In this document: positions 5,745 through 23,258 of the stretch, one piece after another
Numbering within the stretch: the first letter of the stretch is position 1
Layout: each line of letters begins with the position of its first letter
From: Geotalea daltonii FRC-32
GTDB taxonomy: Bacteria > Desulfobacterota > Desulfuromonadia > Geobacterales > Geobacteraceae
Length of the DNA stretch: 32,000 nt
Direction: 5' to 3'
NCBI RefSeq assembly: GCF_000022265.1
Contig: NC_011979.1
Coordinates: 2,790,001 to 2,822,000, forward strand
The notes under the pieces: model-generated
Seen by the model: only the letters and a program-made list of their open reading frames with translations
Told to the model about the DNA's origin: nothing
The model's database searches: none
Translations under genes and position numbers: made by a program

Positions 5745-7415
5745 ATGGTAAATGTTCGTTTTCTTCCAGCCGATCGCTCCATCACCGTTGAAAAAGGGAC
5801 CACCATCCTGGAAGCGGCGCGGCTGGCCGGTGTCCTTATCGAATCCCCATGTAACGGAGCCGTGGTCTGCGGCAAATGTACAGTTTATCTGGACCCGGAC
5901 TCGTTGCCGCACATCGTCCGGCGCGGAGGCCATCACCTTTCCCAGCGACAGGAGCGGGCCGGGCAGGTTCTCTCCTGCGAGGCGGAGGTGATCGGGGATA
6001 TTGCTGTGGTCCTTCCAGAACTGGCGGAGCAGGATCTGAAAATAACCAGCCATGGCCGTGCCGTGGCCGTAGCCCTGGCGCCGTATGTCATCAAGGAATA
6101 CGTGGCGGAAAGGGATGTAACGCTGGTTTATCATGGAGCGGAAGTTGCCTTGGAGGAAGAAGGGGATACTGCAGGAGACGCATATGGTGTGGTGGTCGAT
6201 ATCGGTACGACTACCTTGGTCGTTTCCATCGTCGATCTGAATAATGGTGTGGAACTGGCCCATTCTTCGGCCCTCAATCCCCAGAGCCGCCATGCCCAGG
6301 ATGTCCTTTCCAGGATCAGGATCGCCTGTGACCAGAAGGGGCTCTCGGAGATGCGGTCCGGTGTGATCGGGGAGATCAACCGGTTGATCGATGAGATCGC
6401 AGGCAAGGCCGGGGTGCGACATGAGCGCATCTATGAGGTAATCTTCAGTGGTAATACCTGCATGCTCCACCTTGCTGCCGGCATTAATCCCCGTTCCCTT
6501 GGCCAGTATCCCTATAAGCCCGAACTGAACGGTGGCAATTGGCTCTCAGGGACAGAGGTGGGGCTTGCCATAGCAAAAAACGGTATCGTTTACCTGCCCC
6601 CCATCATTTCTGCCTACGTGGGGGCCGACATCACTGCCGGATTGCAGGCAGTACGGCTCCACGAGGAGCAGGGGACGGTTCTATTTGTCGACATCGGTAC
6701 CAACGGCGAGATGGCCATTGTCCATAACGGTAAGCTTTGGGCCACTTCCACCGCCGCGGGGCCAGCCTTTGAGGGAATGAACATCACCTTCGGCATGAGG
6801 GCGGGTGAGGGAGCCATCGAACGCTTTGTCATCCTCAAAGACGGCAATATCAGACTCAAGACCATCGGCAATGCTCCGGCTGTGGGCATCTGCGGCAGCG
6901 GTCTCATGGATATCGTCGCCGATCTGGTGGCCCACGGCATCATAACCAAAAATGGCAAGTTTGTTTCGCCTGATGAGCCCAATCTTTTTTCCCCACTTGC
7001 AGCGCGACTTATGAAAGTCGATGGCAAGCCGGTCTTCAGCCTGACCGATAAGGTTTACCTGTCCCAGAAGGACATTCGCCAGGTGCAGCTGGCCAAAGGA
7101 GCGATCCGGGCGGGGGTGGAGTTCCTGCTGCGCCATACGGGGGTAACGGCTGCTGTTCTGGACAAGGTGCTCATTGCAGGTTCCTTCGGTTTCCATCTTA
7201 CCGCCGAAAGCCTTGTCACCATTGGGCTTCTACCTCCCGAAACAGCAGGTTGCATCGAATTTGTCGGCAACACCGCCAAAAGCGGCGGCGAAGCTTTTCT
7301 CCTCAATCGTGACAGTCGCATGGAGATGCAGCAACTGGTAGCAGCGGTTCATGTGGTGGAACTTGTCAACTGTCCCGATTTCGATCGCATTTTCATAGAT
7401 TGCCTTTCCTTTTGA
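5745..7415 (+). CDS. Reductive activase of corrinoid enzymes (RACE/RamA-like; [2Fe-2S] ferredoxin + ASKHA ATPase domain)
   Basis: N-terminal plant-type ferredoxin Cys pattern (SPCNGAVVCGKCTV ... VLSCEA). ASKHA phosphate motifs VVVDIGTTTLVVS and LFVDIGTNGEMAIV. 556 aa, AAGGAG RBS. Confidence 0.8.
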   Translation: MVNVRFLPADRSITVEKGTTILEAARLAGVLIESPCNGAVVCGKCTVYLDPDSLPHIVRRGGHHLSQRQERAGQVLSCEAEVIGDIAVVLPELAEQDLKITSHGRAVAVALAPYVIKEYVAERDVTLVYHGAEVALEEEGDTAGDAYGVVVDIGTTTLVVSIVDLNNGVELAHSSALNPQSRHAQDVLSRIRIACDQKGLSEMRSGVIGEINRLIDEIAGKAGVRHERIYEVIFSGNTCMLHLAAGINPRSLGQYPYKPELNGGNWLSGTEVGLAIAKNGIVYLPPIISAYVGADITAGLQAVRLHEEQGTVLFVDIGTNGEMAIVHNGKLWATSTAAGPAFEGMNITFGMRAGEGAIERFVILKDGNIRLKTIGNAPAVGICGSGLMDIVADLVAHGIITKNGKFVSPDEPNLFSPLAARLMKVDGKPVFSLTDKVYLSQKDIRQVQLAKGAIRAGVEFLLRHTGVTAAVLDKVLIAGSFGFHLTAESLVTIGLLPPETAGCIEFVGNTAKSGGEAFLLNRDSRMEMQQLVAAVHVVELVNCPDFDRIFIDCLSF

Positions 7416-7708
7416 ACAGAGAAGGGGGGGCCTGATTCTGAGCCCTCACTACTGCAGTAAAAAACCAGATCCAGGTTGCCAGATATGTATCCAAAAGTAT
7501 TGCAACCATGGGAAACATGGTGTATATAGGAACAACTTGGATGACGTCTAACATGTTGGATTAACAGCATGTTATTTGGTTTTGTTAAGGTGGGTTGAGG
7601 ACGAGAGATTAGGTTCGTTACCCGGGAGTCGGACGTGCAAATCCTTCTCCCCGCAACCTGAAATTCAAGGGCTTGGACTTATGTCCGAGTCCTTTTTTGT
7701 CGTCTATC

Positions 7709-7866
7709 AGGCTGTTGAAAAACTATTGCGGACCCGCGGGGCCTGAAGGGCCGGTCTGCTGTGTTGCCGCTCACTCGGAAACTCAACGTACATCACGGTA
7801 CGTTTCGCTTCCTCCTTCACTTGAGCCTTGCATCCCGACCTCCTCATCACGTTTTTCAACAACCTG
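7709..7866. repeat. Hairpin-centred intergenic element with terminal inverted repeats GTTGAAAAAC/GTTTTTCAAC
   Basis: TIRs lie at 7714-7723 and 7851-7860. The central hairpin is ACGTAC-atcacg-GTACGT. The layout matches the elements at 9317, 15267 and 26621. Confidence 0.55.
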
Positions 7867-9316: not shown

Positions 9317-9504
9317 TACGTAGTTTCCATCCGGAAAGGGTGCTTTTCTGCCCTAGCTGCGTCAATCTGCGGGCTTACTTGTGCGACGTACCGATGTACG
9401 TCTCCGCGCAAGCCCTTGATTTCCTTGCCAGGACAAAAAATCCCCTATTTCCGAATCGGAAACCACTAGTTTCTCATCCGGAGTTTCCGGATGGAAACTA
9501 CGTA
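9317..9504. mobile_element. MITE copy A (about 185 bp, perfect 21-nt terminal inverted repeats)
   Basis: TACGTAGTTTCCATCCGGAAA (9317-9337) is the exact reverse complement of 9484-9504. There are internal hairpins GACGTAC-cgat-GTACGTC and TTTCCGAaTCGGAAA. It is near-identical to 26621-26804, has no coding capacity, and its GTTTCC...GGAAAC core is flanked by TA on both sides. Confidence 0.8.
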
Positions 9505-11033: not shown

Positions 11034-11477
11034 ATGAAAAGAACCCGGTTTGTGGGAATTATCACTGGAATAATCATGATAACTACTTCACTGGCGGTCG
11101 CTGCGGGAATGGGGGGTGGAGGATGGGGTATTGGGGGCGCTTATCAACGCATATATAATCCTTCAACAGTGGAAACCGTATCAGGGACCATTGAAAGGGT
11201 TGACAGAATGAAGCCAATGCGGGGGATGGGTGCCGGAATCCATCTTCTACTCAAGACGGACAAGGAGACGATTCCCGTTCATCTTGGCCCGGACTGGTAC
11301 ATTAATAAACTTGATGCAAAGCTTGAGAAAGGTGAGAAGCTTGATGTGACAGGTTCAAAGGTAACCATAAGTGGAAAACCGGTTATCATTGCCTCTGAGT
11401 TGAAAAAAGGGGATGAAGTTCTCGTTCTCCGAGATGCGGCAGGCGTTCCTGCGTGGTCAGGATGGAGACGGAAGTAA
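11034..11477 (+). CDS. Secreted hypothetical protein with Gly/Met-rich N-region
   Basis: Start at ATG 11034, 5 nt after AAAGGAGGA. It has a signal-like segment (FVGIITGIIMITTSLAVAAG), then MGGGGWGIGG and MKPMRGMGAG, then a beta-rich C-terminal part. Function unknown; the metal-island context is the only clue. Confidence 0.55.
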   Translation: MKRTRFVGIITGIIMITTSLAVAAGMGGGGWGIGGAYQRIYNPSTVETVSGTIERVDRMKPMRGMGAGIHLLLKTDKETIPVHLGPDWYINKLDAKLEKGEKLDVTGSKVTISGKPVIIASELKKGDEVLVLRDAAGVPAWSGWRRK

Positions 11478-11514
11478 ATGTTTTGGCCACTGTTTCCCGT
11501 GATCACATGTTGAA

Positions 11515-11544
11515 AAAGGGCGACCTTTCGAGCGGTCGCCCTTT
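11515..11544. terminator. Bidirectional intrinsic terminator between convergent genes
   Basis: Perfect 11-bp stem AAAGGGCGACC / GGTCGCCCTTT with an 8-nt loop. A-run on the left and T-run on the right. Confidence 0.75.
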
Positions 11545-11594
11545 GCAGAAATGTTCGATGGAGGCATATACGACATGGTCAGTCTAATGGGTGA

Positions 11595-12113
11595 TTATAG
11601 AGCTATAATCATCATGGGAACCATCATGAGGAGCATCATGCCTCCTCCCCACCAGCGCCATTTCCCGCTGCCAAAATGATGTGAAAAAAAACCATGCTCC
11701 TCATGTTCGGAACTCTTTGCTTCTCCGACCATGGCATTTATTTCATAACTGAGTACTTCTGCAGATTTTCCAACGTCAGCGATTGTAACCGCTATCTTAT
11801 ATTCCCCAGGTGTATCGAAGGACCAGGAATCCAAATACTCGTCCTCCAGAACATCAACTTCTCGGCTCAGCACCTGCCTGTTAGTACCTTTTTCATAAAC
11901 CTGAAGGGCCACCTTTCTGTCAGTGACTACTTGTCCATCTTTCTCAAGCTTCAATGCAAAAGTAACTTTACTACCTGCCGATGGCGAGTCAGGGGCAAGC
12001 CTGATAGCCGCTTTCATGTTGTTTTGCGCAAAGCTCTGTTCCATTGCCAGAGCGGTCACTGGTGTAACTGAAAGGAATACTGCCAACATCAGGTAATGAT
12101 AAAAAAGAGCCAC
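11595..12113 (-). CDS. Exported FixH/YtkA-like beta-sandwich protein with His-rich linker and Met-rich C-terminal helix (putative metal-binding)
   Basis: Start re-assigned to GTG at 12113, with GGAGG 8 nt upstream. The ORF-track TTG start at 12164 lies inside a -24/-12 element. Signal-like ALFYHYLMLAVFLSVTPVTALA, then SSEHEEHGFFSHHFG, then WWGGGMMLLMMVPMMIIAL. Confidence 0.6.
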   Translation of the reverse strand: MALFYHYLMLAVFLSVTPVTALAMEQSFAQNNMKAAIRLAPDSPSAGSKVTFALKLEKDGQVVTDRKVALQVYEKGTNRQVLSREVDVLEDEYLDSWSFDTPGEYKIAVTIADVGKSAEVLSYEINAMVGEAKSSEHEEHGFFSHHFGSGKWRWWGGGMMLLMMVPMMIIAL

Positions 12114-12147
12114 TGCGAACACCTCCGATTTTTTTGTACATGGATGC

Positions 12148-12163
12148 AGCAAAGGGCATACCA
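12148..12163 (-). promoter_or_regulatory. Candidate sigma-54 promoter (minus strand) TGGTAT-N5-TTGCT
   Basis: The reverse complement of 12148-12163 is TGGTATGCCCTTTGCT. GG and GC are separated by exactly 10 nt. It lies about 24 nt upstream of the RBS of the 11595-12113 gene. Confidence 0.55.
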
Positions 12164-12220
12164 ATATAAGATCACTTTAATTTCAAATACCTATGCAATA
12201 GTGAGGTTTTATTTGATGCA

Positions 12221-12248
12221 GAAAAATCTACATCCCTGCAGGATATTC
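12221..12248. promoter_or_regulatory. Putative enhancer (UAS): two GAATATTC-like boxes 20 bp apart
   Basis: GAAAAATC (12221-12228, 6/8 match) and GGATATTC (12241-12248, 7/8 match). They lie 57 nt from the minus-strand -24 element. Confidence 0.4.
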
Positions 12249-12322
12249 CACGATGTCAGATTGATCAGTGTTTTTTGCATCGCTCGGCTCTTGTCACCGA
12301 ATCGTGTGCTAGGATCTTCAGG

Positions 12323-12541
12323 GTGACTGATGCCTTCGACGCCCACAGTTGAGCCGGATTTTACCTGTATGGGCATGAACTGTATGGGCATGAAGAATGC
12401 GGATGAATGATCTAGGCAGAGAGGGGGAAGTATTTTGACCCAAAAGTAGTAGATGCATTTCTGCAAATAGGGCGTAAGCAAATAGAGGCAATCCAAATAA
12501 GATTTTGCACTGAGTGGAGAATATTCAACATACATGGGTGA
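12323..12541 (+). pseudogene. Decayed 3' remnant of an HD-GYP/HD-domain gene
   Basis: One frame reads VTDAFDAHS*AGFYLYGHELYGHEECG*MI*AERGKYFDPKVVDAFLQIGRK...*. This matches the xDxFDAxTSxRPY ... G.xFDPxVVxAF end of HD-GYP domains but carries three in-frame stops. The upstream part is in another frame. Confidence 0.6.
12365..12394. repeat. Perfect 15-bp tandem duplication (CTGTATGGGCATGAA x2)
   Basis: 12365-12379 is identical to 12380-12394. It lies inside the HD-GYP remnant and encodes LYGHE twice. Confidence 0.9.
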
Positions 12542-12565
12542 TATTCTTTATCCTGAGGAATATTT
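12519..12565. promoter_or_regulatory. Putative enhancer (UAS): three GAATATTC-like boxes at 20/19-bp phasing
   Basis: GAATATTC (12519-12526, exact), TGATATTC (12539-12546, 6/8) and GAATATTT (12558-12565, 7/8). The last box is 60 nt upstream of the TGGCAG at 12626. Confidence 0.55.
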
Positions 12566-12625
12566 TTCAGGACTGCTTTTAAAAAAATTCATATAATTCC
12601 AATAAGTTACAACAATTAATCAAGC

Positions 12626-12641
12626 TGGCAGATTTTTTGCT
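12626..12641 (+). promoter_or_regulatory. Candidate sigma-54 promoter TGGCAG-N5-TTGCT
   Basis: TGGCAGATTTTTTGCT has one mismatch to TGGCAC-N5-TTGCW with correct GG-N10-GC spacing. It sits upstream of the HMA/ABC operon. The ORF-track TTG start at 12637 is the -12 element itself. Confidence 0.7.
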
Positions 12642-12699
12642 TTTACTTTCCATGAACACCAACAGGGAATCCACAGAAGTTATGTCAGGTGAAGCCAAG

Positions 12700-13113
12700 A
12701 TGAGAAAACGGATTATAAATATAGCTTTGGTACTTGCCGTGGTTGCGCTGATGGTATTTCTCGCTTTTCACGTCAAGATCAAACGGCCTGTACAGGAAGT
12801 TGCCGTGTTAAAGACCATCGGCATGACCTGTGGGAGTTGTGCAGGGAAAATTGAGAAAGCCTTGATGCGTTTGCCCGGAACGGCTGGAGTGGAGGTGGAT
12901 GTGGAAGGGGGATGGGTGCTGGTCGGCTATCAATCAACATCTGCAAAGCCTGATACATTTGCTGCAGCAGTTAACAATGAAGGGTTCAGGAGCTGGCTGA
13001 TGGAAAAAATGCCCATTGCCGAGTTCAAAAAGGTTGCAGGGCGGGATTTCGGGTCTAAGGCGGTAAAGTCTTCATACTGCGGCAATGGTGGATGCGGCAG
13101 CAATCGAAACTAA
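12700..13113 (+). CDS. Membrane-anchored heavy-metal-associated (HMA) domain protein with Cys-rich C-terminal tail
   Basis: Start at ATG 12700, with AGGTGA 8 nt upstream; alternatives are 12652 and 12682. MRKR plus a TM helix, then an HMA fold with GMTCGSCAGKIEKAL. The tail is YCGNGGCGSNRN. Confidence 0.75.
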   Translation: MRKRIINIALVLAVVALMVFLAFHVKIKRPVQEVAVLKTIGMTCGSCAGKIEKALMRLPGTAGVEVDVEGGWVLVGYQSTSAKPDTFAAAVNNEGFRSWLMEKMPIAEFKKVAGRDFGSKAVKSSYCGNGGCGSNRN

Positions 13114-13126
13114 ACGGAGGAACTAA

Positions 13127-13543
13127 ATGTACGCAAGGATAAACATCACCCCCCATCATCTGGTAGTCACATTGATGACGCTGTTGGTTCTGTTGGCAAC
13201 CATATCCTGGGGGGCGACGCAGGGGGCCGATACGGTAACCGTGCTGAATGCGGAGAAGCTGTCGTGTGGCAGTTGTGCTGCGAAGATCACCAACGCACTT
13301 GAACAAAAAGAAGGAGTCGTTTCGGTTGAAGTAGACATCGCTGCAGCAAAAGTGACCGTGTGGCATGATTTGAAAAAAATTGCCCCTGGTCAACTCGCTT
13401 CAGTGGTTACTGATACTGGATATCCAAGTAATGTAGTGCGTACTGTCGCAAAGGATGTGTTTGACAGGGAAACGGGCAAGACGCCCCAGGCACAGAAAAA
13501 TGCAGGCGGTGGTTGTGCCTGTTGCAATAAGAACAGAAAGTAA
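13127..13543 (+). CDS. Exported HMA-domain protein with Cys-rich C-terminal tail (paralogue of previous)
   Basis: Signal-like LVVTLMTLLVLLATISWGATQGA, an HMA motif LSCGSCAAKITNAL and a GGGCACCNKNRK tail. RBS is ACGGAGGA. Confidence 0.75.
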   Translation: MYARINITPHHLVVTLMTLLVLLATISWGATQGADTVTVLNAEKLSCGSCAAKITNALEQKEGVVSVEVDIAAAKVTVWHDLKKIAPGQLASVVTDTGYPSNVVRTVAKDVFDRETGKTPQAQKNAGGGCACCNKNRK

Positions 13544-13561
13544 AACAAAGGGAGTATAGCC

Positions 13562-14092
13562 ATGGGAAAAGCCGCACGAAAACAAAACAGGGTTAAGGAG
13601 GATGTACAGGTGATCGGTATGAAAAACATTCGAAGCAAAGGTTTACATCTGGGTATTGTTGCCGGGATATTGGTTGTTCTGGGAGTAGCGACGGTATTTG
13701 CTCTGAACATACCTGGTTTCTCAAGTGTCCAGAAGGTAAAGCCGGTAAATGGAGTGGTAAGCATCCCGGTGGCAAAGGTTTCAGACGGCAAGGCACATTT
13801 TTACCAGTTCAAAGATAGCGGCAAAGATATAAGCTTCTTTGTGGTCAAAGACTCTGATGGCGCCATCCATACCGCCTTTGATACCTGTGATGTCTGTTAC
13901 AAGGCAAAAAAGGGATATGAGCAGAAAGACGACTTTATGGTGTGCAAAAACTGTAATCAACGCTTTGCCATAGCGAAAATAGGTCCGCACGCTATTGGCG
14001 GCTGCAATCCCACCTACCTCCCCAGCGCTTTTGTCGGAGCAAACGTCATTGTCAAGGCAACCGATCTTCAGTCCGGTGCCAAATACTTCTAA
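13562..14092 (+). CDS. DUF2318/FtrD-like membrane-anchored Cys-cluster protein
   Basis: One TM helix, then CDVCYKAKKGYEQKDDFMVCKNCNQRF ... GGCNPTYLP. This is the CxxC...CxxC...GGCNP pattern I associate with DUF2318 proteins, which accompany FtsX-type ABC genes (for example in the Campylobacter P19/Ftr1 locus). The family call is from memory. Confidence 0.6.
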   Translation: MGKAARKQNRVKEDVQVIGMKNIRSKGLHLGIVAGILVVLGVATVFALNIPGFSSVQKVKPVNGVVSIPVAKVSDGKAHFYQFKDSGKDISFFVVKDSDGAIHTAFDTCDVCYKAKKGYEQKDDFMVCKNCNQRFAIAKIGPHAIGGCNPTYLPSAFVGANVIVKATDLQSGAKYF

Positions 14093-14104
14093 GCGGGATA
14101 GAAA

Positions 14105-15265
14105 ATGAAACTGCATACCATATCCATCAACAACCTTAAACGCCGGAAAACTAAAATGGCTTTTCTCACCATCGGGCTGATGGTGGGAATCGCCACAATT
14201 GTCACGCTCGTGACACTTACCCGGTCCATGTCCAGCGACATTGAACGGAAGATGGATGAATTTGGAGCCAACATCCTCATTACTCCCCAGAGTAACGGCC
14301 TCTCCATGAATTACGGGGGCATAAGCCTTGGGGGCGTCACCTTCGACCAGCGTGAGATAGGCGAAGAGGATCTGGCCAGGATCAAAACCATCAAGAACAG
14401 CAAGAATATCTCTGCCGTTGCGCCAAAGGTACTGGGGGGAATCAAGGTAGGTTCTCACGATGTGCTGCTGGTCGGAGTGGACTTTGACAGTGAATTGAAA
14501 ATGAAACAGTGGTGGCAGATCTTTGGCGATGCCCCGAAGGCCGACAATGAAGTGTTACTGGGAAGCGATGCCTCAAAGATCCTCGATGCTAGCTCCGGTG
14601 ATACCATCCGGATCAAGGAGGAAACCTTCAAGGTTGCCGGAGTGCTTGACCAGACCGGCTCACAGGATGACTCTCTCGTCTTCGCCTCTCTTGGCAAAGC
14701 ACAGAAAATTCTCGGCAAAGAAGGAAAGATCACCTTGGCGGAGGTGGCGGCTCTTTGTTCCGGGTGTCCCATTGGCGACATGGTAACCCAGATTGCCGAA
14801 AAGCTCCCCGATGCCAAGGTCTCGGCAATCCAGCAGGTGGTGGAAGGGCGCCTCAAGGCACTGGACCAGTTCAAACGGTTTTCCTATGCCATGGCAGGGG
14901 TAGTTGTTTTTATCGGTTCCCTGATTGTCTTTGTGACCATGATGGGAAGCGTCAATGAGCGCACGACCGAGATCGGTGTTTTCAGGGCGATAGGCTTTCG
15001 CAAGAGCCACATCATGCGGATCATTCTACTGGAAGCAGTACTTGTCAGCCTGCTGGCAGGAATCCTGGGCTATGCTGCCGGCATGGGGGGGGCCAAACTG
15101 GCTCTGCCTTTCATGGCTGAAAGCAAGAATGCACACCTCATCTGGGACAGTACTGTAGCTGCCGGTTCAATCGGATTAGCCGTAATGCTGGGCCTGCTGG
15201 CCAGTCTCTATCCAGCGCTGCATGCCAGCAAGATGGACCCGACGGAAGCCCTGCGGGCGCTTTGA
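14105..15265 (+). CDS. ABC transporter permease, FtsX/MacB type with periplasmic domain
   Basis: 386 aa. An N-terminal TM is followed by a roughly 230-aa extracytoplasmic domain and three C-terminal TMs, with RAIGFRKSHIMRIILLEAVLVSLLAG (FtsX core) and a C-terminal DPTEALRAL. Confidence 0.85.
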   Translation: MKLHTISINNLKRRKTKMAFLTIGLMVGIATIVTLVTLTRSMSSDIERKMDEFGANILITPQSNGLSMNYGGISLGGVTFDQREIGEEDLARIKTIKNSKNISAVAPKVLGGIKVGSHDVLLVGVDFDSELKMKQWWQIFGDAPKADNEVLLGSDASKILDASSGDTIRIKEETFKVAGVLDQTGSQDDSLVFASLGKAQKILGKEGKITLAEVAALCSGCPIGDMVTQIAEKLPDAKVSAIQQVVEGRLKALDQFKRFSYAMAGVVVFIGSLIVFVTMMGSVNERTTEIGVFRAIGFRKSHIMRIILLEAVLVSLLAGILGYAAGMGGAKLALPFMAESKNAHLIWDSTVAAGSIGLAVMLGLLASLYPALHASKMDPTEALRAL

Positions 15266-15266
15266 T

Positions 15267-15385
15267 GGGACGCGGCTTTTGCGCAATAGCTGCGTAAGTC
15301 TTCGGAACTGCTTGTGCGACGTAGCTGGGCTACGTCTCCGCACATTTCCTTGACAGCCTTGCTCTTGCATCAAAATCCACGTCCC
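15267..15385. repeat. Hairpin-centred intergenic element inserted between permease and ATPase genes
   Basis: TIR-like GGGACGCGG (15267-15275) and CCACGTCCC (15377-15385). The core CTTGTGCGACGTAGctgggCTACGTCTCCGC is shared with the MITE core CTTGTGCGACGTACcgatGTACGTCTCCGC. Confidence 0.6.
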
Positions 15386-15416
15386 TGGAGAGATCAGTTA
15401 GTTAAAAGGAAAATAA

Positions 15417-16091
15417 ATGAAACTCATCGAAATACAAAACGTAAAGAAACACTACACTAGCGGAGAAGACGTTGTCGAAGCCTTGCGCGGTGTTGATATC
15501 AGCATAGAAGCCGGTGAATTTATCACCATAATGGGGCAGTCAGGCTCCGGTAAGAGCACCTTGCTCTCAGTTCTGGGAGGAATGAACCATCCGACTTCCG
15601 GAGATGTCGAGATGGCCGGCGTACGTCTTTATGACCTGCCAGGGGAAAAGCTGGCCGACTTCCGGGCACAAAACCTTGGGTTTGTTTTCCAATCATTTCA
15701 CCTGATCCCGTACCTGACCGCTGCAGAGAATGTCATGCTGCCGTTAGCAATTGTCAAAATGGCTACCAGTGCAAAGAGGGCCGCGGCCCGCCAAGCCCTT
15801 GAAAGAGTCGGTCTGGGGAACAAGCTTGGCCGGCTCCCCAACCAATTATCTGGGGGTGAGCAGGAACGTGTTGCCATTGCCAGGGCTATTGTCAACAACC
15901 CGCATATACTTTTGGCTGATGAGCCGACCGGCAACCTGGATTCCAAGACCAGCGAAGAGGTCATGGCATTATTCAGGGAGTTGAATAATGCCGGACAGAC
16001 AGTCGTGATGGTAACGCATAATGCTGAAAACGGGGCATACTCTGACAGAACCATAAGCTTAAGGGACGGCATGGTTGTTGGTTCTGTTTGA
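15417..16091 (+). CDS. ABC transporter ATP-binding protein (MacB/LolD-like)
   Basis: Walker A GQSGSGKST, signature LSGGEQERV, Walker B LLADEPTGNLD and an H-loop VTHN. Confidence 0.9.
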   Translation: MKLIEIQNVKKHYTSGEDVVEALRGVDISIEAGEFITIMGQSGSGKSTLLSVLGGMNHPTSGDVEMAGVRLYDLPGEKLADFRAQNLGFVFQSFHLIPYLTAAENVMLPLAIVKMATSAKRAAARQALERVGLGNKLGRLPNQLSGGEQERVAIARAIVNNPHILLADEPTGNLDSKTSEEVMALFRELNNAGQTVVMVTHNAENGAYSDRTISLRDGMVVGSV

Positions 16092-16100
16092 GGTGGTCTA

Positions 16101-16523
16101 GTGAATCTGTTCCCTGTCAGAGACCTTGTCATTTTGGTGGTCTGTAGCAACCGGGATGTTCTAGAGGTTATAGAAAGGCTTTTGGGCCATTTGGAGATCA
16201 ATGTCACATGCGTCATGAGCACGGATGCAGCGCTTGTCATGCTGCAGACTGAAACCTACAGCGCCATGATCAGCGATCACAAAATGAAAGACTTTAACGG
16301 GCGGGAATTCAGCCGGACGGTGCGGCAACTATTTCCTGCTCTCAACGTTGTGTTGTTTGAAGGTAACACCAGCTCACAGGTCATGGATCTGTTTTTGGGC
16401 CCGGAAGTGTCGGAAATTTCGGAAGTACAAAACCAAGCTTGCAGTCTTGGGGACATGTTGATGAGCATTCTGAGGGGCGAAAGGGGAAAAACCTTTCTTC
16501 TGAGGCAGACATCAACGAGATGA
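16101..16523 (+). CDS. Receiver-like (possibly pseudo-receiver) single-domain protein
   Basis: 140 aa, GTG start behind GAGGTGG. The layout is REC-like (VILVVCSNRD ... YSAMISDHKMKDFNGREF ... NVVLFEG). The usual acidic DD pair after beta-1 is replaced by CS. Weak call. Confidence 0.4.
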   Translation: MNLFPVRDLVILVVCSNRDVLEVIERLLGHLEINVTCVMSTDAALVMLQTETYSAMISDHKMKDFNGREFSRTVRQLFPALNVVLFEGNTSSQVMDLFLGPEVSEISEVQNQACSLGDMLMSILRGERGKTFLLRQTSTR

Positions 16524-16539
16524 TATGGAGGGAAAACCA

Positions 16540-16959
16540 ATGGATGCCATGGAAATTAGTGCCTCTGCCTTGACCGCCGAAAGAACCCGGATGAACCTGA
16601 TTTCATCTAACCTTGCCAACGCCAATTCCACCAGGACAGATGAAGGTGGCCAATACCGACGCAAAGATGCGGTATTTGCCACTGTTCTTGATGGTGCAAG
16701 CGCCAATATGGAGGGAGGGACAGAGGTTATTGGAGTCGAGGTTGTCAATATTATCGAGGACCAGTCTCCCCCTAGGCTTCAATACGACCCTGGACACCCA
16801 GACGCAAGAGAGGATGGTTATGTTGCATATCCGAATGTCAATATTGTTGAGGAAATGGCCGACATGGTGACTGCGACGAGAGCATATGAAGCGAATACCA
16901 CTGCTATGAAAGCTGGCATGGATATGCAGATGAAAGCCCTTGAGATCGGCTCAAAATGA
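16540..16959 (+). CDS. flgC: Flagellar basal-body rod protein FlgC homologue (orphan copy)
   Basis: Start at ATG 16540, 8 nt after GGAGGG. The N-terminus ISASALTAERTRMNLISSNLANANSTRT..GGQYRRKD matches the rod-protein signature. The C-terminus DPGHPDA..DGYVAYPNVNIVEEMADMVTATRAYEAN is typical of FlgC. Confidence 0.8.
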   Translation: MDAMEISASALTAERTRMNLISSNLANANSTRTDEGGQYRRKDAVFATVLDGASANMEGGTEVIGVEVVNIIEDQSPPRLQYDPGHPDAREDGYVAYPNVNIVEEMADMVTATRAYEANTTAMKAGMDMQMKALEIGSK

Positions 16960-16999
16960 TCATGACTGACTGGGCTAAGAGTATGAATTTGCGGAACAC

Positions 17000-17572
17000 A
17001 TGAAAGTAATATTCGTTACAATGATCATGCTGTTATTTCTTCCGATTGTAGCACTGGCAGATACGCAGCTGCCGGTCCAGAACGGCGTCATAACTTCTGG
17101 TGTTGGCTGGCGACTCGATCCATTCGGTAGCGGAAGGGCCATTTTGCACCATGGGATCGATATAGCCGTACCGGTCGGAACCCCTGTTCGTGCCACCCGC
17201 AAGGGTCAGGTTGTCTTTTCGGGCATACGTGGCGGATATGGATCGACCGTTATAGTAGAACATGCCAATGGCGACCGTACCCTCTATGGTCACAACTCTT
17301 TGTTGCGTGTGAAGGCTGGCGACATGGTCGAATCAGGTACAGTCGTGGCTTTTTCAGGCAACACGGGTAGATCCACAGGACCCCATGTGCACTTCGAACA
17401 GTTGCCAAGCGGCCGCGCCCTAACAGAACAGGCTGAAACAGAAAATATTGAGATGCCCCAAATTGCTACCAGTACTGATCAGCGATACAGGCTGGAACAA
17501 CAGATGGATGAATCGGTGAGTTCCATCCTCAGGACCATCAACAGGAACGGAACAGCAGGACAAGGCGGTTGA
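17000..17572 (+). CDS. Secreted M23-family metallopeptidase
   Basis: Signal peptide MKVIFVTMIMLLFLPIVALA. HxxxD (HHGIDIAV) and HxH (GPHVHFE) zinc motifs, plus GNTGRSTGPH. Confidence 0.85.
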   Translation: MKVIFVTMIMLLFLPIVALADTQLPVQNGVITSGVGWRLDPFGSGRAILHHGIDIAVPVGTPVRATRKGQVVFSGIRGGYGSTVIVEHANGDRTLYGHNSLLRVKAGDMVESGTVVAFSGNTGRSTGPHVHFEQLPSGRALTEQAETENIEMPQIATSTDQRYRLEQQMDESVSSILRTINRNGTAGQGG

Positions 17573-17683
17573 GGCTTAGAACATCTAAGCAATGTAGCTA
17601 CCAATCCACGAACAGAAGGAAGGCTGCAATGAGACCGACTCAAAGTTGACGGATTAACCGGAAAGGCTCAGGATCACAGATAA

Positions 17684-18814
17684 ATGCAAATTCAGAAGTT
17701 ATCAATAACCGCATTTCGCCCAATCATCCTGGCTTGCTTTCTTGTTTGCATAAGCCTTCTCCACTATCTGACACCGCTTCATCTCCCTTATCTTCACGAT
17801 ATTTTCCAGCGTCTCTACTATCTGCCGATAATTCTCGCTGCCCTATGGTTTGGGTTGCGTGGTGGGTTAATCTGCTCAATCCTTGTCAGCATTGCTTATG
17901 CACCGCATCTTCTTTTCCAGTGGGGCGGCCACCTGACCCTGGAAATGGAGAAATATCTTGAAATTATGCTGTATAACATTGTAGGGGGTGTGACTGGCCT
18001 GCTGTCCCAGCGGGAGCGGGAGCGCACAGTGGAGCTCCAGAAAACTGCCCGTGGGCTGGAGGAGTCATACCAGAAGCTGCAAAACCAATCTGAGCGTATC
18101 ATTATCATCGAGGAACAGTTGCGACGGGCTGAGAAGCTGTCTACCTTGGGAGAAATGGCCGCGGTACTGGCCCACGAGATCCGAAATCCACTCGGTTCAA
18201 TTCGTGGAACAGCCGAGATATTGAAGGACGACTACAAGCCCGGTGACCCGAAACAGGAATTCATCGACATACAGATCAAGGAGACCGAGCGTCTGAACCG
18301 GGTGGTGGAGGATTTTCTCCATATGGCACGACCACAGCCAGCTGACATGCAGCTCTGTCCGATTCAGGAAGAATTGGAAACAATAGTGGCTCTGCTTTCC
18401 AATGACGCCAGGGGACGACAAATTTCACTTGTGCTGAAACCGGCATCCGCCCCTGTAATAATCAGTGCCGACGGTGAAAAGCTCCGACAGGCTTTTCTGA
18501 ACATTATCATCAACTCCTTGCAGGCAACACCGCCGGGGGGCAGCGTAACCATAACGACAACCCCCTATGAGGCAGGCTCATGTGAAATCTGCTTCCGTGA
18601 TAGTGGCCCAGGAATAGATGCAGAGACGATGGACCGCATTTTCGAGCCTTTTTTTACTACCAAACCGGATGGTACCGGTTTGGGCCTGGCTATTACCAAG
18701 AAGATCATTGAAAGTCATGGCGGAACAATGCAGGTGGAAAGTGAAGTTGGTCACGGAACTATAGTCAACGTCATCTTGCCGATGCAAAATGCTTCTGACG
18801 GAGGATTGCGGTGA
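17684..18814 (+). CDS. Sensor histidine kinase with 4-TM membrane-embedded input domain (no obvious periplasmic domain)
   Basis: About 110 N-terminal residues form closely spaced hydrophobic helices. These are followed by a coiled coil, an H-box LAHEIRNPLGSI, an N-box INSLQA, and G-boxes DSGPGI and GTGLGLA. Confidence 0.85.
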   Translation: MQIQKLSITAFRPIILACFLVCISLLHYLTPLHLPYLHDIFQRLYYLPIILAALWFGLRGGLICSILVSIAYAPHLLFQWGGHLTLEMEKYLEIMLYNIVGGVTGLLSQRERERTVELQKTARGLEESYQKLQNQSERIIIIEEQLRRAEKLSTLGEMAAVLAHEIRNPLGSIRGTAEILKDDYKPGDPKQEFIDIQIKETERLNRVVEDFLHMARPQPADMQLCPIQEELETIVALLSNDARGRQISLVLKPASAPVIISADGEKLRQAFLNIIINSLQATPPGGSVTITTTPYEAGSCEICFRDSGPGIDAETMDRIFEPFFTTKPDGTGLGLAITKKIIESHGGTMQVESEVGHGTIVNVILPMQNASDGGLR

Positions 18815-20169
18815 AAGGAAAGATTCTTGTAATTGACGACGACAATTCGCTACGGCGGGTGCTGGAATACAACCTCAAAGAGGAGGGTTATGAAGTCCAG
18901 GCTGCCTCATCGGGTGAGGAAGGCTTGTTTTTATTCGGACAATCTCAGCCTGACCTGGTTATTACCGATATGAAAATGTCGGGTATGGATGGACTGATGG
19001 TGCTCAAGTCAATCAAAGAGCGTTCACCGGAGACTTTGGTGATAATCATAACCGCATTCGGAACGGTGAACATAGCAGTGGAGGCCATGAAAGCGGGGGC
19101 TTACGACTATATCACCAAACCCTTCAACAGGGATGAACTCAAACTGATTGTCCTGAAAGCGCTTCAGTTCAATGGGCTGGCTGAGGAGAACAAGCGGCTG
19201 AAGAGCCAGTTGTCGGATAAAACTGATTTTCGCACTATTATCGGCACTTCAAAAGAAATGGAGAAGGTTTTCGATGTGATTCGCAAGGTAGCCGACACTG
19301 AGGCTGCCATTTTGATTACAGGCGAATCCGGTACGGGAAAGGAGCTGGTCGCCCGCTCCATCCATGCTAACAGTTCAAGGAGAGAAGCTCCATTTATAGC
19401 CATCAACTGTGCCGCCATTCCCCGTGACTTGTTGGAGAGTGAACTTTTTGGCCACGTAAAAGGAGCATTTACCGGAGCACTGAGAGACAAAACCGGCAAA
19501 TTTCAATTGGCGGATGGCGGAACACTTTTCCTTGATGAAGTCGGCGAACTTCCGCTGGAATTACAGCCAAAGTTGCTCAGGGCTCTACAGGAGAAGGAGG
19601 TTGAACCTGTGGGAGGCACTAAGGTTCAGAAAATAGATGTCAGAGTGGTTTCAGCTACTAACGTCAATATAGACAAGGCTATAGCTAACGGTTCATTCCG
19701 TGAAGACCTTTATTACCGCTTGGCAGTCATACCGGTACACCTCCCCTCCCTACGCGAACGACGCAAAGACATCCCATTACTGATCAAATACTTTTGTGGC
19801 AAGCATGGCAGCGAGAATGTCACCCTCGAAAATAGCGCCCTTGAGACTTTGGTGATGCATTCCTGGCCGGGAAACGTACGGGAGCTGGAAAATACCATCG
19901 AACGTCTGCTCATTATGCGAAACGGTGATATGATTTCTGTTGATGACCTGCCGGATAAACTTCGCGAGAAACGTGCTCAGGGGACAGCAGTAATAAAACT
20001 GCCCGATGAAGGGTATCCTCTTGAGCAATTGGAGAGGGAAGTGGTCGTTGCCGCCCTGGAACGCAGCTCATGGAATCAGACAGCGGCTGCCCGCTTCCTG
20101 AGAATTCCCCGACATACGCTTATCTACCGAATGGAGAAATATGGCATTACTCCGCCGGGTCAGAAATAG
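18811..20169 (+). CDS. Sigma-54-dependent response regulator (NtrC/ZraR family enhancer-binding protein)
   Basis: The GTG start overlaps the kinase stop (GTGA). REC domain (ILVIDDD ... LVITDMKMSGMDG), AAA+ domain with GESGTGKE and the GAFTGA loop, and a C-terminal Fis-type HTH (AAARFLRIPRHTLIYRMEKYGI). Confidence 0.9.
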   Translation: MKGKILVIDDDNSLRRVLEYNLKEEGYEVQAASSGEEGLFLFGQSQPDLVITDMKMSGMDGLMVLKSIKERSPETLVIIITAFGTVNIAVEAMKAGAYDYITKPFNRDELKLIVLKALQFNGLAEENKRLKSQLSDKTDFRTIIGTSKEMEKVFDVIRKVADTEAAILITGESGTGKELVARSIHANSSRREAPFIAINCAAIPRDLLESELFGHVKGAFTGALRDKTGKFQLADGGTLFLDEVGELPLELQPKLLRALQEKEVEPVGGTKVQKIDVRVVSATNVNIDKAIANGSFREDLYYRLAVIPVHLPSLRERRKDIPLLIKYFCGKHGSENVTLENSALETLVMHSWPGNVRELENTIERLLIMRNGDMISVDDLPDKLREKRAQGTAVIKLPDEGYPLEQLEREVVVAALERSSWNQTAAARFLRIPRHTLIYRMEKYGITPPGQK

Positions 20170-20247
20170 GCATATTCCAAAATTTTTTAAAAGCCTTAAT
20201 CTTTGTGAATAAGAGCCGAAAGGTATCTATGGATGGGCTGCAGTGAC

Positions 20248-20275
20248 GAATATTCCTACCTTGTGGGGAATATTC
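20248..20275. promoter_or_regulatory. Putative enhancer (UAS): two exact GAATATTC palindromes 20 bp apart
   Basis: GAATATTC at 20248-20255 and 20268-20275, in the contexts cGAATATTCC and GGAATATTCt. They lie 58 nt upstream of the TGGCAC at 20334. Confidence 0.6.
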
Positions 20276-20333
20276 TCCACGCCTTGACATTCCGACCGCA
20301 ATAATAAATCTGCAAAATCAGTAAGATATGAGT

Positions 20334-20349
20334 TGGCACAACCTGTGTA
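20334..20349 (+). promoter_or_regulatory. Candidate sigma-54 promoter TGGCAC-N5-GTGTA (deviant -12)
   Basis: The -24 TGGCAC is perfect. The -12 position reads GT instead of GC. Placement relative to the UAS and to the cusC-like start (20392) mirrors the other three promoters. Confidence 0.45.
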
Positions 20350-20391
20350 ATTGTAACTGTATTGAATTTATGTTCATGTTTGGGAGCTTCC

Positions 20392-21717
20392 ATGAAAACA
20401 CTACACACGTTTGCTTTACTACTTCTATTGGCTGTTTCTCCATCCATGGTGTGGGCGGAAGAGGGTAAGCCGCCTGCCGAGGATCTCTCACGCCTCATCG
20501 CTACCGCGCTTGATAAAAATCCGGAACTCAAATCTTCCCAGGCCCGCTGGCAGATGTTTGCCAACCGGGTCAAACAGGCGTCGGCCCTTGAAGATCCCAT
20601 GTTCATGTTCAAACTGCAGAACCTGATGGCAAAGGAACCTTTTGCCTTCGATAAAGACCCACAGACCTCCAAGGTAATCGGCATATCCCAACAACTTCCC
20701 TTTTGGGGCAAGCGCGCTATCAAACAGGAAGTGGCACAATATGAGGCGGAGTCCTATAAATGGGCCATCGAAGAACGGAAACTTGAACTGGCCCGCATGG
20801 TGAAGGAGACATACTACCAGATCTACGCTGTGGACAAGTTTCTACAGATCATCGACAAGAACCTGCAGATACTGACCGATTTCATCACCATTGCCGAGTC
20901 CAAGTATTCAGTCGGCCAGGGGGTGCAGCAGGATATTTACAAGGCGGGTTTGGAAAAATCCAAAATGCTCGACATGCAGATAACCCTGAAACAGCAACGA
21001 CGGAGCCTGGAGGCGAATCTCAACTATCTGCTCTACCGGCCCGATACGACCCCCATTGGTAGAATCCCCGATTTCGATTTACCGAAACCGTCCCTGACAG
21101 CCGAACGACTGAAAGAAGCTGCTTTCGCCAAAAGGCCCCAGGTAAAAAGCCTGATCAGCCTGGCCAATAAGGGAGATGCCTCCCGCCGCCTGGCGCAAAA
21201 GGAGTACTACCCCGACTTCAATCTCTCCTTCGAATACATGTTCCGTGAGGCGGTAAATACTGAAATGATAAAAGATCCGGGCGACAACATGTTTACCGTC
21301 GGCGTCACGTTCAACCTGCCACTGCAGCGTGAGCGCCGACAGGCCATGGTTGCCGAAGCGACTTCCGAAACGAACATGTCTTTGGAGGAGCTCAACGGCC
21401 TGAAGAACAGCATCACCTATTCCATTCACGATATTCTGGCCCAACTGGAACGCCGGCAGAAACTGGTTGAACTGTACAAGGGGGGAATTATTCCCCAGGC
21501 TGAACAATCACTGGAATCGGCCATCATCAGCTACCGTGTGAACAAGGTGGACTTTCTCACCCTGCTCGACGGGCGGGTCAACCTGTTCAATTACGAGCGG
21601 GAACTGTACGACTCACAGGCTGAATACATGATGAAGCTGGCCCAGTTGGAAGCGCTTGTCGGTGGTGAATTGCCGGGGCCGGCTGGCCAGACTCCAGCTT
21701 TGACTGCGGTCAAGTAG
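20392..21717 (+). CDS. cusC: TolC-family outer-membrane efflux protein (CusC/CzcC-like)
   Basis: Start at ATG 20392 (MKTLHTFALLLLLAVSPSMVWA signal; GGGAG RBS). It has a two-repeat coiled-coil/beta-barrel OMF layout and is first gene of an OMF-MFP-RND triad. Confidence 0.8.
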   Translation: MKTLHTFALLLLLAVSPSMVWAEEGKPPAEDLSRLIATALDKNPELKSSQARWQMFANRVKQASALEDPMFMFKLQNLMAKEPFAFDKDPQTSKVIGISQQLPFWGKRAIKQEVAQYEAESYKWAIEERKLELARMVKETYYQIYAVDKFLQIIDKNLQILTDFITIAESKYSVGQGVQQDIYKAGLEKSKMLDMQITLKQQRRSLEANLNYLLYRPDTTPIGRIPDFDLPKPSLTAERLKEAAFAKRPQVKSLISLANKGDASRRLAQKEYYPDFNLSFEYMFREAVNTEMIKDPGDNMFTVGVTFNLPLQRERRQAMVAEATSETNMSLEELNGLKNSITYSIHDILAQLERRQKLVELYKGGIIPQAEQSLESAIISYRVNKVDFLTLLDGRVNLFNYERELYDSQAEYMMKLAQLEALVGGELPGPAGQTPALTAVK

Positions 21718-21773
21718 CCACCGACTTCATCCGTTCAGAACAGAAACAATTATCCATATATCGAGGTACGACC

Positions 21774-23159: not shown

Positions 23160-23168
23160 AACATACCG

Positions 23169-23258
23169 ACCACGAAGTCACGAAGGTCACGGAGTAAAAT
23201 CCTCCCATATCTCGACCCATCATGCGCCTGTAATGGTTTTCTTCGTGTTCTTCGTGCC
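23169..23258. repeat. Inverted array of CACGAAG repeats between adaptor and pump genes
   Basis: CACGAAG appears twice (23171-23177, 23179-23185), facing CTTCGTG twice (23241-23247, 23250-23256). This predicts a long stem with a loop of about 55 nt inside the cusB-cusA spacer. Confidence 0.65.

Follow-up and report, generated by a model that had tools for sequence, protein, structure and literature searches.

Five adjacent genes in the bacterium Geotalea daltonii FRC-32 form a real and conserved unit that has not been described and that, judged from its sequence, is best classed as the known core of a DUF2318 protein and a type VII transporter of the ATP-binding cassette (ABC) kind, rewired with thiolate chaperones and tied to a Cus pump. 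The genes lie within a 32,000-nucleotide stretch of contig NC_011979.1 (assembly GCF_000022265.1, positions 2,790,001 to 2,822,000 of the forward strand), referred to here as the window. They encode, in order, two proteins with HMA domains and cysteine-rich tails (HMA1 and HMA2), a DUF2318/FtrD-like protein, an FtsX-type permease and an ABC ATPase. At a probability that we put at roughly 45%, this module is an ATP-powered periplasmic thiolate relay for soft metals, most likely Cu(I) or Ag(I) and possibly Hg(II), that serves the Cus island beside it. We favor this reading because predicted periplasm-facing thiolate sites near the membrane are combined with an ABC motor of the mechanotransmission type and because the module is usually located with, and probably regulated with, Cus. 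An initial annotation, made from the letters of the window, had already proposed a periplasmic device for thiophilic metals. Domain profiles, charge bias, gene order, a CusA of Cu(I)/Ag(I) type and a plasmid-borne metal island now speak for that proposal, and its functional part stays conditional. To it we add a CxxC pair in the FtsX permease, the primacy of the tail over the HMA domain, a Rieske-like fold for DUF2318, and a variant in which a histidine kinase (HK) gene accompanies HMA and DUF2318 and the ABC transporter is missing.

The order HMA-DUF2318-FtsX-ABC is conserved as a unit across Desulfuromonadales far beyond chance, since it is kept in dozens of genomes. One genome per species was scanned, which gave 305 pattern matches and 275 tblastn-confirmed stretches, and the best 80 of these were examined; the window proteins were mapped onto the loci by tblastn, and start codons in the loci were picked by a simple rule. 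Almost all of the loci belong to Geobacteraceae or other Desulfuromonadales. An HMA gene stands directly upstream of the DUF2318 gene in 69 of 78 loci, an FtsX gene directly downstream of it in 62 of 75, and an ABC gene after FtsX in 55 of 68; a second HMA paralog is less frequent (17/73). The domains and gene limits that the initial annotation had assigned to the five genes are all backed by strong Pfam profile matches (Table 1), and the synteny on which it had staked its reading is borne out by these counts. Cus genes occur within 8 kb in 25 of the 32 full-flank loci with FtsX, and the flanks of 15 of the same 32 include an HK gene, an activator gene or both. On plasmid pPRO1 of Pelobacter propionicus, the module sits inside an annotated metal island, where a metal-sensitive transcriptional regulator (CsoR-like by our reading), a heavy-metal P-type ATPase, an HMBD protein and an HD protein are followed by HMA, DUF2318, FtsX, ABC, M23, kinase, sigma-54 activator, TolC-family protein, adaptor and CusA. 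The four genes also form a stand-alone operon among housekeeping genes in two Desulfuromonadales metagenome-assembled genomes (L077 and L079), and the module is therefore autonomous.

Two departures from this arrangement are informative. FtsX-ABC is absent from 12 of 44 full-flank loci, mostly in Geomonas, Citrifermentans and Geomesophilobacter, and in 11 of these 12 an HK gene stands directly upstream of HMA-DUF2318; Geomesophilobacter sediminis combines the two types (L040 and L054). Desulfovibrionales carry a DUF2318-FtsX(CxxC)-ABC triad without HMA and without Cus. In 2 of the 4 genomes examined, Desulfovibrio ferrophilus and Desulfocurvus vexinensis (L083 and L087), the neighbors of this triad are an aa3-type cytochrome c oxidase operon with SCO1 and a DUF4079 membrane protein; in the others they are FmdE/MoCF or DsrMKJOP-like genes. 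The triad is preceded by an FmdE/MoCF_biosynth fusion gene in L083 and L086. Searches with tblastn for Ftr1, P19, TlpA and thioredoxin homologues (FTR1 and P19 queries from Escherichia coli pCE10A) found none in the window or in the other fetched loci. The orthologous locus of Geotalea toluenoxydans JCM 15764 (L001) has many apparent frameshifts, in HMA1, FtsX, ABC, M23, kinase and CusC, which most likely are draft-assembly errors and not signs of pseudogenes.

The HMA proteins appear to be tethered to the inner membrane and to face the periplasm. HMA1 begins with MRKR, followed by one transmembrane (TM) helix, HVKIKR, an HMA domain whose motif, GMTCGSC, is the most frequent one in the family, and a Gly/Cys tail; HMA2 has a signal or anchor, an HMA domain with LSCGSC, and its own tail. 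When the positive-inside rule is applied to 74 family members, net charge comes to +2.32 over the 12 residues that precede the helix and to +0.16 over the 12 that follow it, and the N-terminal flank is the more positive one in 66 of the 74. Because of this bias, an orientation with the N terminus inside and the domain outside is supported, with the HMA and DUF2318 domains in the periplasm, as had previously been suggested for the HMA proteins. The anchor carries a conserved juxtamembrane motif, (H/Y/R)VR(V/I)GATAD, and in one locus (L069) an anchor of this type is fused directly onto DUF2318.

The cysteine-rich tails, which had been pointed out before, turn out to be the more telling part of these proteins. 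Three cysteines are present in the tail in 61 of the 74 proteins, and a typical tail has a vicinal CC, a third Cys 2 to 7 residues away, a Gly-rich stretch and a basic end. In four loci with two HMA genes (L019, L022, L033 and L046) the first copy has no HMA CxxC and retains the tail, and in two others (L050, 7801-8037, and L062, 7805-8020) the gene upstream of DUF2318 consists of anchor and tail with no HMA domain at all. We regard the Cys tail, not the HMA domain, as the better-conserved core of these "HMA" proteins, because it persists where the HMA CxxC or the entire domain has been lost. The proteins fall outside the named HMA families. HMA1 and HMA2 score 33.4 and 46.9 bits against the MerP equivalog TIGR02052, which has a cutoff of 92.55, and are thus not MerP, which is the best NCBIfam match of HMA2; HMA1 also matches, below cutoff, the TM-plus-HMA part of NCBIfam models for MerT/CopZ fusions. 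Scores of 41 to 44 against CopZ models with cutoffs of 85 to 95, together with the N-terminal TM helix and the outward domain, separate them from cytoplasmic CopZ, a soluble protein of about 70 amino acids.

The permease contributes a further predicted thiolate site. It has four TM helices and a Porter/Sabre periplasmic domain, and its sole cysteines form the pair C218-S-G-C221 (EVAALCSGCPI). Both are invariant in 62 locus permeases and in a 42-sequence alignment that includes the Desulfovibrionales subfamily at about 35% identity; the latter was reached by a second search, seeded with a Desulfovibrio homologue, which gave divergent sequences, the top 120 homologues of the first all being at least 88% identical. 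In an AlphaFold2 (AF2) model with a mean predicted local distance difference test (pLDDT) score of 74.7, the CxxC falls in the loop that joins strand 211-216 to helix 223-233. This site belongs to the second beta-alpha-beta unit in the membrane-proximal Porter subdomain, shortly before the chain enters the stalk helix towards TM2, and an alignment to MacB 5LIL gives the same placement. The strand-loop-helix geometry is like that of the HMA metal site and the thioredoxin active site. FetB and FetC of E. coli pCE10A have no such pair, and we know of no other type VII permease that has one in its Porter domain. Foldseek matched the model to MacB (5gko; query-normalized TM-score [TMq] 0.73, E value 1e-18) and also to LolCDE, YbbAP, HrtBA and BceAB-S. 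With its four-helix FtsX domain, large Porter/Sabre domain between TM1 and TM2 and adjacent ATPase gene, the pair is by predicted fold a type VII ABC transporter of the MacB superfamily. It belongs to none of the NCBIfam equivalogs, scoring 52 against a cutoff of 362 for lolCE, 18 against 255 for FtsX_Gneg, 233 against 308 for LolD and 220 against 265 for FtsE; the best NCBIfam matches of the ATPase, each below its equivalog cutoff, are LolD, the MacB nucleotide-binding domain and FtsE. The sole adaptor in the window is of the CusB type, beside CusA, and no adaptor follows FtsX-ABC in the stand-alone operons; the makeup of a MacAB-TolC tripartite pump, with its dedicated MacA-type protein, is not seen.

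The DUF2318 protein (176 amino acids, with a very basic N terminus and one TM helix) carries the motif CxxC-x15-CxxC-x16-C, ending in GGCNP, as the initial annotation had described it. Its five cysteines, C109, C112, C128, C131 and C148, are invariant in 25 homologues; the Campylobacter protein has spacings of x13 and x14-15, compared to x15 and x16 here (PMC6083913). The AF2 model (mean pLDDT 78, with most 10-residue blocks of the domain near 90 and a range of 74 to 95) has a pair of hairpin knuckles that bear the two CxxC motifs and a third loop that bears the GGCNP cysteine. A comparison of the DUF2318 profile with PDB sequences gave chance-level matches only. The best PDB structural matches of the model are Rieske ferredoxins (5bok, 2e4q and 3dqy; E values around 1e-4, the top one 1.7e-4, and target-normalized TM-score [TMt] about 0.6), and the domain thus models as a Rieske-like fold with Cys ligands. 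The likeness is one of fold: ligand positions are CxxC/CxxC rather than the CxH...CxxH of a Rieske [2Fe-2S] protein. A cytoplasmically assembled Fe-S cluster is unlikely, because a twin-arginine motif is absent from every DUF2318 protein examined, Desulfovibrionales included; the latter have a textbook Sec signal ending in AHA-F. A metal ion taken up in the periplasm, or a structural zinc, would be the more likely ligand. The family is large (1,146 clusters at 50% identity with E <= 1e-10), and the best matches are mostly short, single-domain proteins. Ten longer representatives included no HMA-DUF2318 fusion; some of the representatives P0361, P0362, P0363 and P0383 have three or four tandem DUF2318 domains, and P0383 is a thioredoxin-DUF2318 fusion.

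The link to copper is provided by the pump. The CusCBA genes reported earlier are present, and CusA, which scores 1,066 bits to E. coli CusA compared to 617 to ZneA, keeps the residues aligned to the E. coli Met triad (LLYMP, SM and NMLSTG), as well as the TM4 motif AIG..VDA..VEN (A-x5-D-x6-EN). These features mark the pump as a true Cus of the Cu(I)/Ag(I) type, as predicted from sequence. Of the larger open reading frames (ORFs) scanned in the window, none was found to encode a P-type ATPase, MerA or MerT, in agreement with what had been stated before. No CusF-like gene was recognized among the scanned ORFs, although no search specific for CusF was made. A Met/His-rich secreted periplasmic protein with no Pfam or NCBIfam match follows cusA (26962-27432); in L050 its homologue (7388-7864) is encoded immediately upstream of the anchor-plus-tail mini-protein. 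A YHS protein is encoded at 29160-29798. Along with a YtkA-like gene at 11595-12164, these two give the surroundings of the module a further copper flavor.

Promoter elements suggest that the module and the pump are switched on together. The sigma-54 promoter that had been proposed for the HMA operon reads TGGCAG-N5-TTGCT and lies 59 nt before the ATG at 12700, which is itself preceded at 8 nt by an AGGTGA Shine-Dalgarno sequence; a TTG listed as the start of HMA1 (12637) was rejected, as it falls inside the promoter. The operon has both the GG-N10-GC signature and a cognate activator gene nearby, and sigma-54 dependence is predicted. With a strict regular expression, the element was found in the two closest relatives only, and a weighted score exposed the variant TGGCAC-N5-TTG(T/A)W, in which the GC at -12 is degenerate; many loci have this variant 45 to 90 nt before their first HMA gene. 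A score of at least 12 was reached in 43% of loci, compared to 5.7% of random 200-nt windows. The element upstream of cusC is of the same variant. The sequence GGAATATT occurs five times in the window (1.09 expected), three of these copies being upstream of the two sigma-54 promoters, and palindromes of its type precede the HMA promoter and the cusC promoter alike, by 60 to 110 nt. Given these shared promoter variants and palindromes, joint control of the HMA operon and cusCBA by the adjacent ZraS/AtoS-like kinase and sigma-54 activator fits; as an activator-binding site, the candidate enhancer region upstream of HMA1 is suggestive only. Because a third sigma-54-like element, TGGCACGCATGTTGAT, again of this variant, lies at 30069-30084, the same regulon may reach beyond Cus. 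It stands upstream of two small paralogous periplasmic proteins (30148-30852) that look CpxP/ZraP-like by eye, the one checked having no Pfam match. The kinase has an AtoS/ZraS-like core by NCBIfam. Its first approximately 120 residues read as apparent membrane helices with short loops and no evident periplasmic domain; this part gives a weak, below-cutoff Pfam match to DUF4118 and is strongly conserved, including His27, His38, Cys64, His75 and His83.

From these features we infer the metal, the order of hand-off, the use of ATP and the contacts between proteins as follows. The four to five genes would encode one envelope machine at the periplasmic face of the inner membrane, accessory to CusCBA. 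The HMA proteins, tethered by their N-terminal helices, would capture metal via the HMA CxxC and above all via the flexible Gly/Cys arm, and metal would then travel among this arm, the five-cysteine site of DUF2318 and the Porter CxxC of an FtsX dimer. ATP hydrolysis by the cytoplasmic ABC protein would be transmitted through the FtsX stalk helices, as in MacB-type mechanotransmission, so as to open or distort the thiolate site and release tightly bound metal to the weaker Met sites of CusB and CusA. ATP would be needed because Cys-bound Cu(I) is presumably held far tighter than those Met sites can compete for. Alternatively, the machine may strip metal from periplasmic victims, e.g., the CxxCH thiols of apocytochromes. 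The operon and cusCBA would be induced jointly by the adjacent kinase and sigma-54 activator.

Several observations weigh against such a relay. The DUF2318 Cys4 knuckles could be a purely structural zinc site. The loci that have no ABC transporter indicate that ATP is not essential to the HMA-DUF2318 pair, and the Desulfovibrionales triad, with neither HMA nor Cus, indicates that support of efflux is not a universal role. A vicinal-CC tail combined with an HMA domain resembles the Hg(II) relay of MerA, and by this analogy the metal need not be copper. Finally, MacB-type pumps usually need an adaptor, and none is dedicated to this FtsX. A broader version of the proposal, which we consider unlikely, is that the DUF2318-FtsX(CxxC)-ABC core acts as a general ATP-driven periplasmic "thiolate metallochaperone engine," in which mechanotransmission would open a Cys site and force Cu(I), or a different soft metal, to be handed over from protein to protein without expulsion. 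The Gly/Cys tail would then be a fishing arm, which might be trimmed by a co-encoded Gly-specific M23 peptidase. If this were true, it would explain in one stroke the FetABCD requirement in P19 iron uptake, the oxidase-adjacent triad of Desulfovibrionales and the Cus-linked module.

Were a relay of this kind to exist, a metal-trafficking job would be added to the MacB/type VII ABC family, and cytoplasmic ATP would be found to shift soft metals that are held very tightly from one periplasmic site to another, an energetic task beyond the reach of passive chaperones. The question is relevant to the metal tolerance of Geobacteraceae, which are dominant at subsurface sites contaminated with metals and rely on a periplasm packed with c-type cytochromes, whose CxxCH thiols are plausible copper targets. 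The module is a simpler, anaerobe-borne form of the DUF2318-FtsX-ABC core, and insight should carry over to the virulence-associated FetMP-FetABCDEF iron systems of Campylobacter and E. coli, and back. Natural experiments are on offer in the invariant cysteines, in the mini-proteins and in the HK-HMA-DUF2318 variant that has no ABC transporter.

That ABC-less variant makes a sensory role a serious rival, albeit one that we think unlikely on balance. Tethered HMA and DUF2318 proteins, with or without FtsX-ABC, would provide the periplasmic metal input to the kinase, and through the sigma-54 activator to cusCBA, in analogy to BceAB-BceS flux sensing in Firmicutes. The main support is the kinase gene immediately upstream of HMA-DUF2318 in nearly all FtsX-less loci; in addition, the kinase has no periplasmic domain of its own, with a strongly conserved membrane part, the conserved anchor motif suggests a specific membrane partner, and the FtsX model counts BceAB-S among its structural relatives. 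However, HMA is separated from the kinase gene by a sigma-54 element in the FtsX-less loci, which fits HMA-DUF2318 as regulated targets, the stand-alone operons have no kinase nearby, and the conserved His and Cys residues of the kinase membrane domain could sense metal directly. Of the features of a Bce-type pair, only gene adjacency and a kinase without a periplasmic domain are seen. Somewhat more doubtful is a role in copper supply, whereby the DUF2318-FtsX-ABC core would deliver copper to, or insert it into, cuproproteins of the periplasm or membrane (CuA/CuB of cytochrome oxidase, or P19) and the Geobacter version would have been recruited beside Cus for the same chemistry. P19/FetP is a copper-binding protein, and YtkA of Bacillus subtilis is a copper chaperone for oxidase assembly; a YtkA-like gene (11595-12164) adjoins the module. 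The Desulfovibrionales triad beside the aa3 oxidase operon with SCO1 points the same way, as does the need of Campylobacter jejuni for FetA (DUF2318 plus YHS) and FetBCD in iron uptake by FetMP, a pair of Ftr1-family permease and P19 (PMC10783030). Against this, the module in Desulfuromonadales is tied to an efflux pump and stress-type regulation and not to cuproenzyme genes, the oxidase adjacency was seen in two genomes only, and Ftr1, P19 and thioredoxin homologues were not found in the window or other fetched loci.

The abundance of cysteine pairs could also be read as a thiol-redox or Fe-S system that reduces or repairs oxidized or metal-damaged cysteines and does not itself carry metal, the CxxC motifs being redox-active disulfides or DUF2318 holding an Fe-S cluster. 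Pfam names PF10080 an iron-sulfur protein, the fold is like that of Rieske ferredoxins, the FtsX CxxC stands at a helix N terminus as in thioredoxins, a thioredoxin-DUF2318 fusion exists, and the thioredoxins FetE and FetF accompany the Campylobacter system (PMC10783030). We nevertheless consider this improbable: the missing twin-arginine signals speak against a pre-assembled cluster, neither the window nor the loci have a thioredoxin or Dsb gene, a MacB-type transporter offers no known route for reducing power across the membrane, and HMA domains and CC tails serve as sites for metal and not as redox modules. A system specific for mercury appears more improbable still. By analogy to the MerA relay with its NmerA domain and C-terminal CC, the HMA domain and vicinal-CC tail would capture periplasmic Hg(II), and Geobacter is known for mercury transformation; the MerP and MerT/CopZ matches of HMA2 and HMA1 and the frequency of a vicinal CC in the flexible tails of the family agree with this. 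Yet the MerP score of HMA2 is only about half the cutoff, MerA and MerT were not found among the scanned window ORFs (the other loci were not screened for mer genes), and the genes that regularly accompany the module are those of Cus and, on pPRO1, those of a heavy-metal P-type ATPase and a CsoR-like regulator.

The features of the locus are listed in Table 1. The gaps between the first four genes, HMA1 to FtsX, are only 12 to 18 nt, so these genes look like one operon. Between HMA1 and the activator gene we saw no convincing terminator, a scan of 11400-20500 for terminators and sigma-70 promoters gave none above shuffle expectation, and no RNA family was found in the window (Rfam, gathering thresholds). 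The scanned larger ORFs upstream have unrelated functions (nitrogenase-like oxidoreductases and a corrinoid methyltransferase set).

Table 1. Genes and control elements of the module and its Cus island (positions in the window)
Feature	Position	Strand	Evidence or remark
Candidate enhancer (activator-binding) region, GGAGAATATTC ... inverted repeat TCCTGA-GGAATATTTT-TCAGGA	12517-12572	+	Read in sequence; repeat scan
Sigma-54-type -24/-12 promoter, TGGCAGATTTTTTGCT	12626-12641	+	One mismatch to TGGCAC-N5-TTGCW
HMA1	12700-13113	+	PF00403, E 1.5e-11, 45 bits vs cutoff 24.8; GMTCGSC; tail YCGNGGCGSNRN
HMA2	13127-13543	+	PF00403, E 4.3e-11, 43.5 bits vs cutoff 24.8; LSCGSC; tail GGGCACCNKNRK
DUF2318/FtrD-like protein	13562-14092	+	PF10080, 113.5 bits vs cutoff 26.3
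FtsX/MacB_PCD permease	14105-15265	+	PF02687, E 1.7e-22; MacB_PCD, E 4.7e-18
ABC ATPase, LolD/MacB/FtsE type	15417-16091	+	PF00005 (ABC_tran), E 4e-34
Degenerate receiver	16101-16523	+	Membership in module uncertain
FlgC paralog	16525-16959	+	Membership in module uncertain
M23 peptidase, active site intact	17000-17572	+	Membership in module uncertain
Histidine kinase, membrane-embedded sensor domain	17684-18814	+	Pfam
Sigma-54 activator/response regulator	18811-20169	+	Pfam
cusC control region: inverted GGAATATTC pair (20248-20275) and sigma-54-like TGGCACAACCTGTGTA (20334-20349)	20248-20349	+	
CusC (OEP), CusB (HlyD_D23 + HMBD), CusA (RND)	20362-26426	+	Pfam

The receiver, FlgC paralog and M23 genes are tightly packed directly 3' of the ABC ATPase gene; M23 or FlgC genes follow the ABC gene in a minority of loci. 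The receiver is a stand-alone protein without the usual N-terminal acidic pair (ILVVCSNRD) and was seen only in Geotalea. The FlgC paralog scores as a full FlgC equivalog (TIGR01395, 165 bits, cutoff 102), and FlgC-like genes also occur 3' of the ABC gene in L004, L006, L009, L016 and L046; why a flagellar rod paralog should stand inside a metal island is not obvious. The M23 peptidase is small and secreted, with HxxxD and HxH motifs, and its gene recurs directly 3' of the ABC gene in some loci, e.g., L081 (12331-12912), L002 and L044; among full-flank loci the count is 6 of 44. It prompted a reading of the module as an FtsEX-EnvC-type system, which we rejected as the main explanation, given the small number of loci with M23 and FtsX and FtsE scores below cutoff. 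M23 enzymes typically are endopeptidases that cut at Gly-Gly, and Gly is abundant in the HMA tails; a processing link between the two is speculative.

Two copies of a 180-nt element, each bounded by perfect terminal inverted repeats of 18 nt (GTAGTTTCCATCCGGAAA...), stand at 9321-9500 and 26623-26802. They are 98% identical, lie 17.3 kb apart and flank the whole MFS-to-CusA region, and a degenerate relative fills the FtsX-ABC gap (15262-15416), which is about 15 nt in other genera. Direct repeats marking the borders of an island were considered and rejected; because of the perfect terminal inverted repeats and the third related copy, the elements look like a family resembling miniature inverted-repeat transposable elements, with no evidence of an island boundary.

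A full-text literature search for the HMA-DUF2318-FtsX(CxxC)-ABC module found no description of it; only the Fet papers, an Avibacterium transcriptome and a Pseudomonas MacB paper surfaced. The closest described system is FetABCD of FetMP-FetABCDEF, whose genes are required under iron limitation and whose biochemical role is still unknown (PMC10783030, PMC6083913). The initial annotation was correct in recalling DUF2318, FtsX and ATPase genes at the P19 locus of Campylobacter: there, a periplasmic DUF2318 with CxxC...CxxC...C is followed directly by FtsX-type permease gene(s) and an ABC ATPase (PMC10783030, PMC6083913), as it is in the copy on E. coli pCE10A. FetA has eight predicted TM domains (PMC10783030) and a YHS domain, whereas the Geotalea protein lacks YHS and has a single TM helix. 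The two different permeases of Fet, FetB and FetC, lack the Porter CxxC, whereas Geotalea has a single permease in which it is invariant. Ftr1, P19 and two thioredoxins (FetE and FetF) belong to Fet and are missing from the Geotalea window, and HMA or Cys-tail proteins are missing from Fet. Fet is Fur/iron-regulated, in contrast to the predicted sigma-54 control and Cus linkage of the Geotalea module. In the absence of Ftr1/P19 linkage, FetA architecture, a second permease and thioredoxins, the module is not a member of FetABCDEF.

For MacB, mechanotransmission on periplasmic or outer-leaflet substrates is established (Crow et al. 2017, as that work is cited in PMC11481552). The Geotalea permease shares its predicted fold with MacB and other type VII systems (MacAB-TolC, LolCDE, FtsEX, HrtBA, YbbAP and BceAB) and differs from them in having no dedicated MacA-type adaptor, in scoring below all equivalog cutoffs and in being partnered by small Cys-rich metal proteins. 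Pseudomonas aeruginosa PA4063-PA4066 and Vibrio ZrgABCDE are alike in combining a split MacB-type transporter with periplasmic metal-binding, chaperone-like proteins under metal regulation; they are, however, Zur-regulated, concern zinc and cobalt, and have been proposed to export pyochelin-cobalt (PMC11481552). PA4063 binds Zn or Co at relatively low affinity, unlike the HMA/Cys-tail proteins (PMC11481552). No DUF2318 protein is reported for these systems, and there is no Cus linkage.

Three further systems offer parallels. The Mer relay (MerP, MerT, NmerA and the C-terminal CC of MerA) also uses an exported HMA domain with GMTCxxC, vicinal cysteines on flexible segments and thiol-to-thiol hand-off. 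MerT, MerA and MerR were not found among the scanned window ORFs, MerP/MerTP scores are below cutoff, and the Geotalea partners are instead a MacB-type ABC transporter and Cus. In NosDFY-NosL, cytoplasmic ATP drives the hand-over of Cu(I) from a periplasmic chaperone to an acceptor with no substrate moving across the membrane, which is the kind of work proposed here; NosFY is, however, of the ABC-2 type and NosD a beta-helix, with no FtsX/MacB fold and no homology to the Geotalea proteins. CusF of E. coli CusCFBA is a small carrier of Cu(I)/Ag(I) in the periplasm whose gene accompanies a Cus pump, as is proposed for the HMA proteins. It is soluble, has an OB fold and binds metal by Met/His/Trp ligation, whereas the putative Geotalea carriers are tethered, have a ferredoxin fold, use thiolates and would have an ATP-driven partner. 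With no CusF-like gene recognized among the scanned window ORFs, the HMA proteins could fill the role that CusF has in E. coli.

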